Of a DNA stretch of 35,845 bases, positions 13,839 through 18,689 are shown piece by piece. Each line of letters begins with the position of its first letter. The first letter of the stretch is position 1. Source of the DNA: Anaerolineae bacterium (GTDB lineage Bacteria; Chloroflexota; Anaerolineae; JACIWR01). The notes under the pieces were generated by a model. The model saw only the letters and a list, made by a program, of their open reading frames with translations, was not told the origin of the DNA and did no database searches. Position numbers and translations under genes: made by a program. The stretch is taken from positions 1 to 35,845 of the forward strand of contig JAGGZG010000298.1 in the NCBI GenBank assembly GCA_021162125.1, in the 5' to 3' direction.

Positions 13839-14925
13839 CCCGAAAGCGTCATCAATCGGGCCCTTGAAGGCTATCATAGCCTTGAGCCTGGCGATCTTGG
13901 TGACGCTGGCGTTTAGCGGCTGCACGTCGTCCACGCCGACGGCTGCTCCCTCCCTTTCATCCTCCCTCATCGGGGGAGATGAAAGGGGGGCTTCTCACGA
14001 GGACTTGGCCCGCTACTACGCCCCCGTTATTAACCAGGGTGTTGCTTCGAACCAGGATTTCATCACCGCTGTGGATTTCGACGGCGACTGGATCGGCAAC
14101 AACAACTGGGAGAACCAGCCCACGGGTGACCTCTCGGCCTACGTCTACTATTCGGTGGTGGAGACGGAGACCCACTGGTTTCTCTTCTACGCCCTGTTCC
14201 ATCCCCGCGACTACACCAGAGACCCATGCGAACAGTCCGACGGCTGCCACGAGAACGACATGGAATCCATTCAGGTGGTCGTCGCCAAGAACGACATGCC
14301 GTTTGGTCGTTTGCAGGCCGTGGAGACACTGGCCCACAGTCACATTTACCTCTACACCGCGGACCGGTCGGTGAGCGGGAACTTCCTCAAGGTCAAAGGC
14401 TCGGTTCGGCTGGAGGAGAGCCACCCCGTTGTCTACGTGGAGACGTATGGTCACGGCATCTACGCCCAGCGCAAGATTCTCGTGCCCTACCGCGTTGTCT
14501 ACCGCGTGGGAGAGCGGGCCGAGGTGCCGGAGAGTCTCCAGGACAAGGACATATCGTACCAACTCGTCTCCATCTACGACACCCTCTGGGTGCGCCGGGA
14601 TGAAATCGGCGAAGGACGGGCTTTCGATCAACCCTTCGACTACCAGGGGCACGTTCTGCCGGCGGCCATTGACGGTGACGATTACGGCGAGGACAAGGCC
14701 AACACTCCCTGGGGCTACAACCAGGAGACAGGCGACACCCTCTCTCGCGGCGACTGGTTCCTCGACCCGGCCAGAGCGCTGGCTTTCCACGCTCGCTTCG
14801 ACGGCGATTTTTCCCTGAAGTACGTCTACAATCCCTATCTGGCCGATCTCGGCCTGGGGGATGGCGCGACAATTCTGCGCCACCTCGCCCTGGAGGTGAA
14901 ATGCGCCCCTGGGATGCCACGTTGA
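13786..14925 (+). CDS. secreted lipoprotein with an NLP/NPP1-like (or Vps62-like) domain
   Basis: Lipobox LAFSGC (Cys at 13921-13923). FHPRD plus GCHENDME (14242-14265) align in order and spacing with the NLP blocks YFPKD and GHRHDWE, followed by SHIY and HPVVYVE blocks. An alternative TTG start at 13864 gives MKAIIALSLAILVTLAFSGC and removes the 53-nt overlap with the kinase gene. Confidence 0.55.
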   Translation: MNQSPNSEPQIPSQPNIDPKASSIGPLKAIIALSLAILVTLAFSGCTSSTPTAAPSLSSSLIGGDERGASHEDLARYYAPVINQGVASNQDFITAVDFDGDWIGNNNWENQPTGDLSAYVYYSVVETETHWFLFYALFHPRDYTRDPCEQSDGCHENDMESIQVVVAKNDMPFGRLQAVETLAHSHIYLYTADRSVSGNFLKVKGSVRLEESHPVVYVETYGHGIYAQRKILVPYRVVYRVGERAEVPESLQDKDISYQLVSIYDTLWVRRDEIGEGRAFDQPFDYQGHVLPAAIDGDDYGEDKANTPWGYNQETGDTLSRGDWFLDPARALAFHARFDGDFSLKYVYNPYLADLGLGDGATILRHLALEVKCAPGMPR

Positions 14926-14950
14926 CGCCGACGGCAGATCGAAGTATAAT
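14922..14950 (+). promoter_or_regulatory. near-consensus sigma70 promoter (TTGACG-17 nt-TATAAT) driving the MBLx3-TIM-darA operon
   Basis: TTGACG at 14922-14927 contains the TGA stop of the upstream gene. A 17-nt spacer precedes TATAAT at 14945-14950. AGGAGGAG RBS at 14968-14975, then the TTG start at 14984. Confidence 0.65.
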
Positions 14951-14983
14951 GGGGACGGAGACTGCCCAGGAGGAGCAAAGCAA

Positions 14984-15733
14984 TTGAGAATCAAGTTTTT
15001 GGGCACGGGCGCGGCGGAGGGGATCCCCAGTTTTGGCTGTACCTGCCAGCGGTGCCGGGTGGCCAGGGCAGAGGGAGGTCACAACGTCCGGCGACGGGCC
15101 TCTTTATTGATCGAAGCAGCCGGACATCGGATACTCCTCGATACCCCACCGGAGATCAGCGCGCTTTTGAACCAGGCTGAGGTTTTCGACCTGTCGGCCG
15201 TTCTCCTGAGCCACGAGCACTTCGACCACATTGGCGGGCTGGTAGAATTCGAGTACTGGAACCGGGTGTTGCCGATTTTCGCCGGTTACGACGTGCTGCC
15301 TAAGCTCCGGTTGACCCCGCGTCTGGAAAGCAGAGCCCTCCTTTCCGGCTTTTACCCCCACACCTGGCTACATTTCGGCGATTTGAAGGTAATGCCCTTC
15401 AAGGTCATCCACCACGTTCCCTGTTATGGTTTCGCTTTCGAGGAGACAGGGACGCGGGTTCTTCACTTCAGCGACTCCAGCCCTGAGTTGGGCAACCTCC
15501 ATCGTCACTTGCTGGCCGGGGCCGACGTGGCCATTTTTCACACCCCCACCTTTGAGCCGTACCGCAGTCACATTAGCGTTCAGGGTGTCATCTCCCTGGT
15601 GCAGGAGTATTCCCTCCGGCGGGCGGTTATCACCCACATCAATCACCACAATCTCCTGCACGAGGAATTGGTGGAGAGAGTCGCTCCCTACGGGATAACA
15701 GTGGCCTACGATGGCCTGACATTGGAGGTTTGA
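14984..15733 (+). CDS. MBL-fold metallo-hydrolase, PhnP/PqqB-like (paralog 1)
   Basis: N-terminus MRIKFLGTGAAEGIPSFGCTCQRCRVAR (C-x-C-x2-C structural Zn motif as in PhnP/PqqB), with an intact SHEHFDHIGG (HxHxDH) motif. Confidence 0.85.
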   Translation: MRIKFLGTGAAEGIPSFGCTCQRCRVARAEGGHNVRRRASLLIEAAGHRILLDTPPEISALLNQAEVFDLSAVLLSHEHFDHIGGLVEFEYWNRVLPIFAGYDVLPKLRLTPRLESRALLSGFYPHTWLHFGDLKVMPFKVIHHVPCYGFAFEETGTRVLHFSDSSPELGNLHRHLLAGADVAIFHTPTFEPYRSHISVQGVISLVQEYSLRRAVITHINHHNLLHEELVERVAPYGITVAYDGLTLEV

Positions 15734-15735
15734 GC

Positions 15736-17267: not shown

Positions 17268-17293
17268 GCAAATCACATAGGAGTGACTATCAC

Positions 17294-18325
17294 ATGCCCA
17301 TCAAAGGTTTTGGCATCAACGCTCACAGTGGCCGGCTGGATGGCAACCTGGATCTCTTGGAACAAGACTTGATTCAGTTTCAGCGTGTCGGCTTCGATTA
17401 CGTGGAGATTCCGGCCCATGGGGTTGACGCCATCCTCAATGGACGGCTCAACCTCAGGCAGATGAAAAGGGTCAAAGATGTGCTGGCCAGATTCGACCTC
17501 AAATACACTGTGCACTGCTCCGACTGGCTGAATCTGATGGACGCTGAGAGATTCCCGTTGCACAAGAGCATCTTTGAGGCAAGCATCGAGTTTGCCAGCG
17601 AGATCGAGGCAGAGATATTGGTTTATCACAGCGGGCGGGTTGAGCTGGAGAGCGAGTATCTGGGGACACTGGCCCTTACCAGGGAACTCCTTTCCTTGCC
17701 TGACCAGGCTTTCGTCGAGGAGTGCAAGCGAATGGAGCGGGAGGCCCTGGCCGAACTCGCAGAGTTTGCCAGGGAGAAAGGGGTCACTATATGCGTGGAG
17801 AACGCTGACCCCCGTGTGGACGAGGAGGCGCTCTGGGAGCTCGTCCGCCGCCTGCGCGTGAAGGGCGTTGACCTTTTTTACCGCATCGCCCCCGCCGGTG
17901 ACATTGCCATCTATAACTACAGCGGGGTGGTAGACCGTCTGGTTGAGCAGGTGAAGGGGGTTGGCAAAGACAACGTGGGGCTGACTCTCGACTGTGGCCA
18001 CGCTTACATCGCCTCCCGATACTATGGCTTCGATTACCTTAAGTCCATTAAGTCGGCTACGCCATTTATCAAGCACGTCCACGTTCACGATGACTTCGGC
18101 CAGCCAGCAGGGCTTGACCGGCGGCAGATCGTGCTCATCGCCGAGGGGAAAGGGGACTTACACATGCCCGTCGGTTGGGGGGAGATACCCTATCGGGAGG
18201 TCTTCTCCCAGTTGAAAGGTTATGAGGGTGTCCTGATGCTGGAGCTTAGACCCCGCTACAGCCCTTACTACGCCGAGGCCCTTCAGGAGACACGCAGGCT
18301 TGCTGAGGAATGCGGTCTCGTGTAA
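17294..18325 (+). CDS. sugar phosphate isomerase/epimerase-like TIM-barrel protein (xylose isomerase-like, AP_endonuc_2 fold)
   Basis: ATG at 17294 is preceded by AGGAG (the ORF track starts at 17207 and overlaps paralog 3). Motifs ILVYHSG, ICVEN, LTLDCGHAY and HVHVHDDFG...GDLHMPVGWGEIPY fit the metal-binding TIM-barrel family. Confidence 0.85.
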   Translation: MPIKGFGINAHSGRLDGNLDLLEQDLIQFQRVGFDYVEIPAHGVDAILNGRLNLRQMKRVKDVLARFDLKYTVHCSDWLNLMDAERFPLHKSIFEASIEFASEIEAEILVYHSGRVELESEYLGTLALTRELLSLPDQAFVEECKRMEREALAELAEFAREKGVTICVENADPRVDEEALWELVRRLRVKGVDLFYRIAPAGDIAIYNYSGVVDRLVEQVKGVGKDNVGLTLDCGHAYIASRYYGFDYLKSIKSATPFIKHVHVHDDFGQPAGLDRRQIVLIAEGKGDLHMPVGWGEIPYREVFSQLKGYEGVLMLELRPRYSPYYAEALQETRRLAEECGLV

Positions 18326-18353
18326 GTCCTACCATTGAATCGAAGGAGCAAAC

Positions 18354-18689
18354 ATGCAACTGATCATCGCCATAGTCAGAGACGAGGACGCAGGCCAGGT
18401 AGCCGAGGCTCTGAAGAGCAATGGCCACATGCTGACCAGATTCAACACCACGAGTGGATTTCTGATGATGGGCAATGCCACGCTTCTCATTGGTGTGGAG
18501 GACTCACGGGTGGACGACGTACTGGATATTATCAGAGCCAACTGTCACCCTCGCACTGAATTTGCCCCTCCGCCGTTAACCGAGAGGCCCAGGGGGTTTC
18601 CCCCGATCTCGCCGGAAGCAGTACAGGAGGTAGAGGTCGGCAGAGCTGTCGTTTTCATCCTGGACGTGAAGAGATGCGAGAGGTTGTGA
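18354..18689 (+). CDS. darA: cyclic-di-AMP receptor, PII-like (DarA/PstA, YaaQ family)
   Basis: MQLIIAIVRDEDAGQVAEALKSNGHMLTRFNTTSGFLMMGNATLLIGVEDSRVDDVLDIIRAN...VEVGRAVVFILDV is colinear with B. subtilis YaaQ/DarA as I recall it (MKLIVAVVQDQD...[23 protein letters not shown]...VEVGGATVFVLPV). GAAGGAG RBS, 28 nt after the TIM-barrel gene. Confidence 0.85.
   Translation: MQLIIAIVRDEDAGQVAEALKSNGHMLTRFNTTSGFLMMGNATLLIGVEDSRVDDVLDIIRANCHPRTEFAPPPLTERPRGFPPISPEAVQEVEVGRAVVFILDVKRCERL

Follow-up and report, generated by a model that had tools for sequence, protein, structure and literature searches.

A DarA-family gene linked to an MJ1311-like TIM-barrel enzyme in a putative inositol-utilisation locus of an Anaerolineae bacterium

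The window analysed here, a stretch of 35,845 nucleotides from an Anaerolineae bacterium (GenBank assembly GCA_021162125.1, contig JAGGZG010000298.1), carries a gene of the DarA/PstA family, known as a receptor of cyclic di-AMP (c-di-AMP) since 2015, at the end of an operon in which it follows three genes for metallo-β-lactamase (MBL)-fold proteins and one for a TIM-barrel enzyme (hereafter TIM). This raises the question of which of these proteins the DarA belongs with and what the operon does. A preliminary description had placed the connection between DarA and the MBLs, proposing a self-contained module that processes cyclic phosphodiesters and is wired to, or acts on, c-di-AMP signalling. 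Related loci give a different answer, in that the conserved unit is TIM-DarA, usually beside an ATP-binding cassette (ABC) importer, and not MBL-DarA. The explanation favoured here, which has about an even chance of being right as a whole, is that the locus serves to take up and degrade phospho-compounds containing inositol, with the TIM enzyme or the importer gated by a dedicated DarA paralog. The operon is made up of the following features.

14922-14950, plus strand: sigma-70-like promoter TTGACG-17-TATAAT, with 11/12 consensus matches
14984-15733, plus strand: MBL1, predicted PhnP-like MBL-fold phosphodiesterase with an intact HxHxDH motif, the paralog kept in single-MBL loci
15730-16500, plus strand: MBL2, apparently catalytically degenerate MBL paralog (RSRYDH, with loss of the histidines of motifs III and V)
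16503-17267, plus strand: MBL3, predicted PhnP-like MBL-fold phosphodiesterase with intact motifs
17294-18325, plus strand: TIM, MJ1311-like TIM-barrel metalloenzyme with a predicted endonuclease IV-type nine-ligand metal centre
18354-18689, plus strand: DarA, 111 codons, DarA/PstA-family PII-like protein of a TIM-linked paralog clade
18760-18784, plus strand: terminator-like GC-rich hairpin followed by a T-run

The window proteins were compared by BLASTP with the six-frame open reading frames (ORFs) of 84 loci gathered in a search starting from TIM, and in the reverse direction metagenome contigs were scanned with an alignment of TIM-linked DarAs, a scan that replaced an insensitive word-indexed DarA search (23 matches). 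DarA was found directly 3′ of TIM on the same strand in 29/29 loci (the window and 28 relatives) with a median gap of 16 nt (range -10 to 164 nt), such that the adjacency of darA on which the preliminary description was built is conserved in relatives, albeit with a different partner. DarA follows in all 13 loci with downstream sequence in which the TIM homolog is at least 63% identical, and lies within 10 kb of none of the TIM homologs of 49% identity or less and of 0/70 TIM homologs outside the clade. The former include L029 and L031, in which the flanks PfkB-lipoprotein-TIM-PfkB2-IolG and the transporter are kept but the TIM is of a short type and DarA is missing, indicating that DarA tracks the type of TIM. 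In the reverse search every DarA match of at least 57% identity with upstream sequence, plus one at 47%, has TIM directly upstream. Matches of 53% identity or less occur in other contexts (tandem DarA pairs, R3H-ATPase/tmk-darA and darA-holB), and the closest other DarAs in the database (45-47% identity) are all tmk-linked, as tmk-darA(-holB).

The MBL content of the DarA-linked loci is variable. Three MBL genes are present in the window and in L006, and also in L012, where two genes part the trio from TIM-DarA; L005, L015 and L017 have only the MBL1 ortholog (84-87% identity) adjoining TIM; and L008, L009, L011, L013, L014, L093-L098 and L105 have no MBL. At the MBL position of L001, L002 and L010 there is a UgpQ-like glycerophosphodiester phosphodiesterase (GDPD), which also stands beside TIM in L032, L057 and L063. 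Because TIM precedes DarA in 29/29 loci regardless of whether these have three MBLs, a single one, no MBL or a GDPD, it is TIM that is the conserved partner of DarA, and a module centred on MBL-DarA finds no backing among the relatives.

The linkage could in principle have been inherited by accident as a neutral feature, with TIM and DarA functionally unrelated. The 18 distinct full-length DarA-linked TIMs form a single monophyletic Chloroflexota clade with no exception in a neighbour-joining tree, sister to the Atribacterota TIMs, and a single ancestral insertion would suffice to explain all linked loci. Such an accident is nonetheless very improbable, since the adjacency persists where identity has fallen to 63% for TIM and 47% for DarA and all other neighbours are reshuffled, and the TIM-DarA gaps on the same strand are tight, with some overlaps.

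A second alternative leaves the function of the locus as proposed and makes the ABC importer, through its MalK-type ATPase or its permeases, the target of DarA rather than TIM. An ABC transporter adjoins TIM-DarA in most loci, with its solute-binding protein (SBP) and two permeases (Perm) arranged as SBP-Perm-Perm-TIM-DarA in L008, L009, L097 and L105, as TIM-DarA-SBP-Perm-Perm-MalK in L011 and L014, and with TIM-DarA-MalK in L094. Regulation of this type would resemble PII control of ABC transporters and the c-di-AMP control of OpuC, and c-di-AMP is known to control osmolyte uptake and to inhibit osmolyte importers (PMC10636490). It is the TIM that is the invariant neighbour of DarA, the position of the transporter being variable, and the retention of the transporter without DarA beside the short-type TIM of L029 and L031 also argues against the importer as the target, which is therefore a possible but minority reading.

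Several lines of evidence point to the chemistry of TIM. The protein matches AP_endonuc_2 (Pfam) at 114 bits, and an AlphaFold model built with 57 homologs reached a mean confidence (pLDDT) of 91. The top structural match in Foldseek was MJ1311 (TM score 0.79-0.83 normalised by target length, 23% identity), and the TIM family profile matched MJ1311 with an E value of 6e-24 over positions 22-310, making it the closest solved relative. Thirteen His, Asp or Glu residues are invariant in the 57-sequence alignment, nine of which (H74, H112, E169, D233, H236, H263, D288, H290 and E317) pair one-to-one in hhalign with the nine residues that bind Zn in E. coli endonuclease IV, the query sequence being identical to 1QTW. 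The ligands of the trinuclear zinc centre of endonuclease IV are H69, H109, E145, D179, H182, H216, D229, H231 and E261, as reported by Hosfield and colleagues in 1999, and Uechi and colleagues reportedly found in 2014 that the same nine are strictly conserved in MJ1311 and that MJ1311 has no DNA-binding groove. A single E-D-H-E metal site that lacks the additional His/Asp ligands is characteristic of ketose 3-epimerases, IolO and IolI. The epimerase IolO lacks four of the nine ligand positions, and since all nine are invariant in TIM the protein, left as an unspecified TIM-barrel enzyme in the preliminary description, probably acts as a phosphoesterase on small molecules and not as an isomerase. 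A weak match to the cobamide phosphodiesterase CbiR (NCBIfam, 37 bits, far under the cut-off) points in the same direction; TIM also falls well below the Nfo model NF002198 (26 bits, cut-off 244), and its matches to NCBIfam epimerase and isomerase models do not exceed 22 bits.

The contrary view would make TIM an isomerase or epimerase of the IolI/IolO kind and the MBLs, for example, lactonases, acting in the catabolism of free inositol or glycosides with no phosphodiester chemistry. In keeping with this the Foldseek matches of TIM after MJ1311 include ketose 3-epimerases and IolI, the hhalign probability is higher for IolO (96.8%) than for endonuclease IV (93.8%), database sources label the protein 'sugar phosphate isomerase/epimerase' and many TIM loci have neither MBL nor GDPD. 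Set against this are the invariant endonuclease IV-type ligands, the presence of a separate iolO gene already in related loci, the repeated recruitment of GDPD beside TIM and the phospho(di)esterase identity of every solved MBL relative. The contrary view is judged unlikely.

Homologs of TIM form a compact family spanning Chloroflexota, Atribacterota, Firmicutes, Bipolaricaulota, Aerophobetes, Thermotogae and others. The protein has insertions at 118-136 and 172-206, of which the latter was considered as a docking element for DarA and rejected: every DarA-linked TIM carries it, but so do Atribacterota TIMs with no adjacent DarA.

Whether the TIM-linked DarA could still respond to c-di-AMP was assessed from the family models and from the c-di-AMP contacts of Listeria monocytogenes PstA (LmPstA), namely T28, 34-GGFL-37, N41, G47, G94, T97, F99 and H108. 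The preliminary description had called the gene a clear YaaQ/DarA homolog, which holds for family membership (PF06153 at 93.9 bits, gathering score 27; E ~1e-18 against PstA/DarA in the Protein Data Bank, PDB) but not at the stricter level of the NCBIfam DarA equivalog (101 bits against a cut-off of 140). The window DarA keeps T28, G35, F36, L37, N41, G47, G96 (equivalent to G94) and F101 (equivalent to F99), and differs in G34S, in V for T97 and in R for H108. R26 is replaced by M, the GGA kink reads GRA in the window DarA and in L008, and F36 is L in four orthologs. The clade is discrete (at most 60% identity to most relatives and at most 47% to canonical DarA) with a proline-rich B-loop that is specific to it, and the canonical tmk-darA-(yaaR)-holB neighbourhood, absent around the window DarA, was seen only for matches of 47% identity or less.

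These differences leave some room for a DarA that no longer senses c-di-AMP and has become a pathway-specific PII-like sensor of another ligand, such as an inositol phosphate or an adenine nucleotide. The substitutions at positions 34 and 26 and, in some orthologs, 36, together with the discreteness of the clade, its B-loop and its sub-equivalog score, would be consistent with a change of ligand. Most of the LmPstA contact positions (T28, G35, L37, N41, G47, G94 and F99 equivalents) are retained, and R26 is dispensable in LmPstA (PMC4475381). A loss of c-di-AMP sensing is thus rather unlikely, and binding of c-di-AMP by the TIM-linked DarA is plausible from its predicted pocket.

Other DarA-family arrangements were observed in the survey. 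Tandem DarA-family gene pairs occur in the metagenome contigs L107-L114, L119, L125 and L127, and L087:6001-6620 has DarA and a second CdAMP_rec gene of 91 aa between tmk and holB. Within the window, approximately 9.5 kb 3′ of darA, the gene at 28159-30024 (plus strand) codes for a transporter of the CitMHS/Na-sulfate-symporter type that contains two TrkA_C (RCK_C) domains. KtrA, CpaA and KhtT bind c-di-AMP through RCK_C, and because it carries these domains the transporter is a possible second target of c-di-AMP.

The three MBLs match Lactamase_B_2 (Pfam), share 37-54% identity with one another and, like their orthologs, all have the N-terminal C-x-C-x2-C motif. Their placement in the PhnP/PqqB-like group, with this motif, is as first described; what had gone unnoticed is that MBL2 has lost its catalytic motifs. 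HxHxDH and the downstream His/Asp/His ligands are intact in MBL1 (HEHFDH) and MBL3 (HAHHDH) and not in MBL2 (RSRYDH). In all MBL2 orthologs (L006, L012 and L090) HxHxDH is replaced, by TRSRYDH or in L090 by TNATYGH, and the histidine of motif III is missing, although identity is still 65-84%. As the degeneracy is conserved at this level of identity, selection for a non-catalytic role is indicated; judged by its motifs MBL2 is a conserved pseudoenzyme, which suggests that it acts as a non-catalytic subunit of a heteromeric MBL complex.

The best NCBIfam matches of MBL1-3 (PRK02113, the GPMC-system MBL, PhnP and PqqB) are all far under the curated cut-offs. Against PhnP (TIGR03307, cut-off 272 bits) MBL1, MBL2 and MBL3 score 99, 65 and 77 bits, and against PqqB (TIGR02108, cut-off 245) the scores are 46-53 bits and cover the N-terminal part only. 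The MBLs thereby fall in no characterised equivalog family, with no phn (C-P lyase) genes in the window or related loci and no pqq gene context around the MBLs. The closest solved relatives in the PDB are all phospho(di)esterases, namely 6b9v, described as an FAD-photoproduct diphosphatase (PMC7599082), YhfI (6kns), 3py5 and PhnP (3g1p).

The idea that the MBLs act on c-di-AMP, or on other cyclic nucleotides, and form with DarA a module for c-di-AMP turnover and sensing derives from the presence of darA within the same operon in the window, from the hydrolysis of cyclic nucleotides by the MBL-fold proteins Apyc1 and YhfI and from weak matches of the MBLs to Apyc1 (PF23023, 23-24 bits) and to the cyclic-nucleotide-degrading phosphodiesterase model NF041851 (19-34 bits, with 32-34 bits at the upper end). 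These scores are far under the respective cut-offs of 50 and 400 bits. Only Lactamase_B-type and AP_endonuc_2 domains were detected by Pfam in MBL1-3 and TIM, respectively, with none of the catalytic domains of the GdpP, PgpH, AtaC or CdnP types (DHH/DHHA1, HD and others). DarA is retained in the twelve loci without any MBL listed above and beside a GDPD in L001 and L010, the MBL trio is separated from TIM-DarA in L012, and MBLs occur in inositol loci without DarA (L089 and L090). A search with PADLOC gave no match for six proteins, by which membership of a defence system was rejected. Nothing was found in support of MBL action on c-di-AMP, the least supported of the alternatives, and it is regarded as highly improbable.

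The loci with MBLs and no DarA instead place the MBLs close to inositol metabolism. L090 has orthologs of MBL1, MBL2 and MBL3 (75, 65 and 59% identity) in the same order, with no TIM and no DarA, within an iolB/C/D locus of the classical type amid IolB (KduI family), an aldolase, an IolC-like PfkB and an IolD-like thiamine pyrophosphate enzyme, and on this comparison the trio is apparently an old cassette. In a second phylum, L089, from a Marinimicrobia metagenome-assembled genome, has a single MBL (42% identity) between a sodium:solute symporter and PfkB-IolM-IolN-IolO-UxaE. The link between MBLs and inositol is of limited generality, since MBL1 homologs of 60-70% identity are found outside inositol loci (L088, L171 and L172) and the MBL1 homolog of L173 likewise has a context unrelated to inositol; the MBL family is broader than inositol metabolism. 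No paper was found tying MBL-fold enzymes to inositol catabolism.

The layout of the operon agrees largely with the preliminary description. The five genes are tightly packed, with gaps of 2, 26 and 28 nt (MBL2/MBL3, MBL3/TIM and TIM/DarA), and the promoter is as reported, its -35 hexamer including the TGA stop of the upstream ORF. The pattern TTGAC-N18-TATAAT, chosen after the site had been seen, occurs once in the window and matched in 0/100 shuffles. All five genes are preceded by an AGGAG-like Shine-Dalgarno sequence. MBL1 and MBL2, previously said to abut or overlap, are closely packed but probably do not overlap: the most likely start of MBL2 is GTG 15736, leaving a 2-nt gap to MBL1, since a GGAGG Shine-Dalgarno sequence lies 7 nt upstream and the N-terminus then agrees with those of MBL1 and MBL3. 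The longest ORF for TIM begins at GTG 17207, with the Shine-Dalgarno sequence favouring ATG 17294. An Rfam scan of the window revealed no c-di-AMP riboswitch and no other Rfam family.

The operon does not stand alone. Upstream of it, on the same strand, the window contains the following genes.

5692-6687, plus strand: LacI-family regulator (Pfam LacI and Peripla_BP_3), where the utilisation locus begins
6942-8462, plus strand: CUT1-type ABC solute-binding protein (SBP_bac_1)
8649-9674 and 9687-10586, plus strand: two ABC permeases (BPD_transp_1 twice)
10635-11711, plus strand: MalK/UgpC-type ABC ATPase (ABC_tran, OB_MalK, TOBE_2)
11773-12816, plus strand: URO-D/MtaA-like protein (PF01208), kept at the same position in L006, L007, L012, L015 and L029
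12888-13838, plus strand: TM0415-like PfkB kinase of the pyrophosphate (PPi)-dependent myo-inositol 1-kinase family (PDB 1vk4/5ysp, E 4e-52)
13786-14925, plus strand: lipoprotein Unk379, family-less, with a lipobox in 12/12 orthologs

The residues that define the subclass of PPi-dependent myo-inositol 1-kinases represented by TM0415 have been described (PMC5931981), and the window PfkB keeps 4/5 of the PPi-signature residues (K171, F221, R229 and R232), with Q in place of M266. LacI homologs also flank related loci. The genes 3′ of DarA in syntenic relatives encode IolG (472 bits, NCBIfam cut-off 355), IolM (587, cut-off 450), IolN (335, cut-off 245) and IolO (375, cut-off 300). It is the TM0415-like kinase and the LacI-associated ABC importer in the window, together with IolG, IolM, IolN and IolO in the syntenic relatives, that place the five genes in an inositol context. 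Rather than a self-contained module, 14984-18689 would then be the distal operon, under a promoter of its own, of a LacI-regulated locus occupying approximately 5.7-18.8 kb of the window, and its five genes the tail of a locus for the uptake and breakdown of inositol-containing compounds, assignments that share the even chance given to the favoured explanation as a whole.

Identification of the SBP ligand from solved relatives was attempted and dropped, the PDB matches being generic and MalE-like such that the ligand cannot be inferred. Unk379 lies immediately 5′ of TIM in L029, L031, L057, L059, L063 and L070 and has strongly conserved motifs that include DFDGDW, HPRDYT and GCHENDxES. It has no Pfam match (E up to 10) and no NCBIfam match, and a 12-sequence profile found nothing relevant in the PDB. 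A resemblance of its motifs to NLP/NPP1-like proteins was likewise dropped after these Pfam and PDB profile results, a single-sequence AlphaFold2 model (pLDDT 34) being unusable. An extra conserved ORF between the lipoprotein gene and MBL1 is found in L006 (6203-7389), L007 (8127-9003) and L017 (upstream of 1805) and not in the window; L090 also carries it (6544-7977), without family assignment. A second URO-D/MtaA-like paralog is encoded in the window at 2586-3596 (plus strand). Synteny with relatives, which go on with PfkB2-IolG, stops at an ORF of 303 aa straight after the operon (18906-19817, plus strand) that has a (QQGL)4 repeat and no family match.

Taken together, the favoured explanation would run as follows. 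The compounds broken down could be glycerophosphoinositol, inositol 1,2-cyclic phosphate, di-myo-inositol phosphate or inositol monophosphates; the sugar or inositol cyclic phosphates suggested in the preliminary description as a substrate class fit the inositol context. The compound would be taken up by the CUT1 ABC importer as an analog of Ugp, and its inositol phosphodiester opened or cleaved by the MBL trio, probably a hetero-oligomer of the PhnP-like and predicted catalytic MBL1 and MBL3 with the degenerate MBL2, a role that the UgpQ-like GDPD may fill in sister lineages. TIM, with its endonuclease IV-type tri-metal centre, would hydrolyse the remaining phosphoester, the TM0415-like PPi kinase could interconvert inositol and inositol 1-phosphate in either direction, and free inositol would enter the Iol pathway, encoded next door in relatives. 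DarA is proposed as a PII-like regulator dedicated to TIM or the importer and binding it in a c-di-AMP-dependent manner, through which c-di-AMP, reporting osmotic and K+ status, may gate the use of inositol compounds that double as compatible solutes. With respect to di-myo-inositol phosphate, L003:1969-3291 (Caldatribacteriota) has a fused NTP_transferase and CDP-alcohol phosphatidyltransferase gene beside an ABC importer and a TIM homolog, a domain pair known from IPCT/DIPPS of di-myo-inositol-phosphate synthesis.

A number of findings weigh against this explanation. The iolG, iolM, iolN and iolO genes are not in the window itself, the SBP gives no hint of its ligand, the promoter region 5′ of MBL1 cannot be aligned among relatives and so shows no conservation, and close homologs of MBL1 occur outside inositol loci. 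To these are added the epimerases among the structural matches of TIM and its higher hhalign probability with IolO, the Atribacterota TIMs that share the long insertion and have no adjacent DarA and, for DarA, the score under the equivalog cut-off, G34S with R26M, the GRA kink and the loss of F36 in four orthologs. Moreover, each functional step, from the substrates and the formation of an MBL complex to the binding of c-di-AMP and the target of DarA, is a prediction from sequence.

As a whole the locus varies on inositol catabolic loci already known, and its logic resembles that of the ugp operon. One such locus is the myo-inositol catabolic cluster of Thermotoga maritima (TM0411-TM0416 and InoEFGK; Rodionova et al. 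2013, cited in PMC3750489 and PMC5931981). As in that cluster, the window has a CUT1 ABC importer, a TM0415-type PPi-dependent inositol kinase and an adjacent repressor gene; IolG, IolM, IolN and IolO are likewise shared, but by the syntenic relatives and not by the window itself. To our knowledge no MBL trio, MJ1311-like TIM, lipoprotein or DarA has been described in the T. maritima cluster. The ugpBAECQ operon of E. coli combines glycerophosphodiester uptake with the cytoplasmic GDPD UgpQ, and a similar logic, in which a CUT1 importer supplies a cytoplasmic phosphodiesterase, would apply here; the sister loci L001 and L010 carry a UgpQ-like GDPD exactly where the MBLs sit. The present locus differs in that the diesterase would be a PhnP-like MBL set and the alcohol presumably inositol, and it has a predicted tri-metal enzyme and a PII-like protein in addition. 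PhnP itself is the 5-phosphoribosyl 1,2-cyclic phosphate phosphodiesterase of the C-P lyase pathway. The MBLs share with it the fold, the N-terminal Cys3 structural-zinc motif, a similar length and a full-length alignment (PDB 3g1p), and are set apart by scores of 65-99 bits against the 272-bit cut-off, by the absence of phn neighbours and by the presence of three paralogs with one degenerate.

TIM belongs to the same TIM-barrel superfamily as MJ1311 (PDB 3wqo), endonuclease IV and CbiR and conserves the nine-ligand centre of endonuclease IV; its low identity to MJ1311, its scores far under the Nfo and CbiR cut-offs and its two insertions distinguish it. We know of no function assigned to MJ1311. 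The window DarA resembles the DarA/PstA proteins of Bacillus subtilis, Staphylococcus aureus and Listeria monocytogenes in its PF06153 fold, in a short T-loop with xGFL and N41 and in length, and differs from them in its TIM rather than tmk/holB context, its discrete clade, S34 for G34, its proline-rich B-loop and its sub-equivalog score. The targets of canonical DarA were still referred to as unknown in 2023-2025 (PMC10636490; PMC12802241), and a 2026 preprint proposes GlnR/GlnA as the DarA target in S. aureus (PMC13484208). A precedent is provided by cyanobacterial SbtB, which is a PII-like receptor of c-di-AMP with control over glycogen metabolism (PMC8654305) and which is encoded beside, and regulates, a specific transporter or carbon-metabolism enzyme, although SbtB is of a different PII subfamily and pathway. 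An MBL trio with a pseudoenzyme, an MJ1311-like enzyme in such a role and a dedicated DarA were found in no paper, and, in agreement with the preliminary description, the gene set corresponds to no pathway found in the literature and to no PADLOC system.

The attachment of a DarA clade to one enzyme in 29/29 loci offers a concrete and testable candidate for a target of DarA control, with its reach limited to a DarA paralog in uncultured Chloroflexota. Since c-di-AMP reports osmotic and K+ status, its coupling to the use of inositol-type osmolytes would be physiologically sensible. The MJ1311 family, and likewise the conserved MBL trio with its pseudoenzyme, would be placed in small-molecule phosphoester chemistry around inositol, with a possible route for inositol phosphodiesters from lipids or compatible solutes into bacterial inositol catabolism. 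A more specific version is put forward only tentatively, its chances being well short of even: that in this Chloroflexota clade an MJ1311-type tri-metal phosphoesterase, or its ABC importer, has the DarA paralog as a dedicated regulatory subunit, that c-di-AMP directly gates the breakdown of inositol-phosphate compounds doubling as compatible solutes and that a heteromeric PhnP-like MBL complex with a pseudoenzyme feeds inositol catabolism. If true, DarA would for the first time be paired with a target on genomic grounds and the MJ1311 family would receive its first function; there would also be an undescribed branch leading from inositol phosphodiesters or cyclic phosphates to inositol catabolism via an MBL complex.

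Other genes in the window were also recorded. On the minus strand 20083-20304 encodes a Frankia-type/NHLP precursor of a ribosomally synthesised and post-translationally modified peptide (PF14407 at 57 bits, cut-off 48), adjoined by a gene (20389-24903, minus strand) for a protein of 1504 aa that combines two cyclase domains with AAA_16 and TPR repeats. Two genes for aminoacyl-tRNA synthetases of the class I Glu/Gln type, one GltX-like and one GlnS-like, are present within 22 kb of each other at 3578-5122 and 25290-27023 (plus strand).

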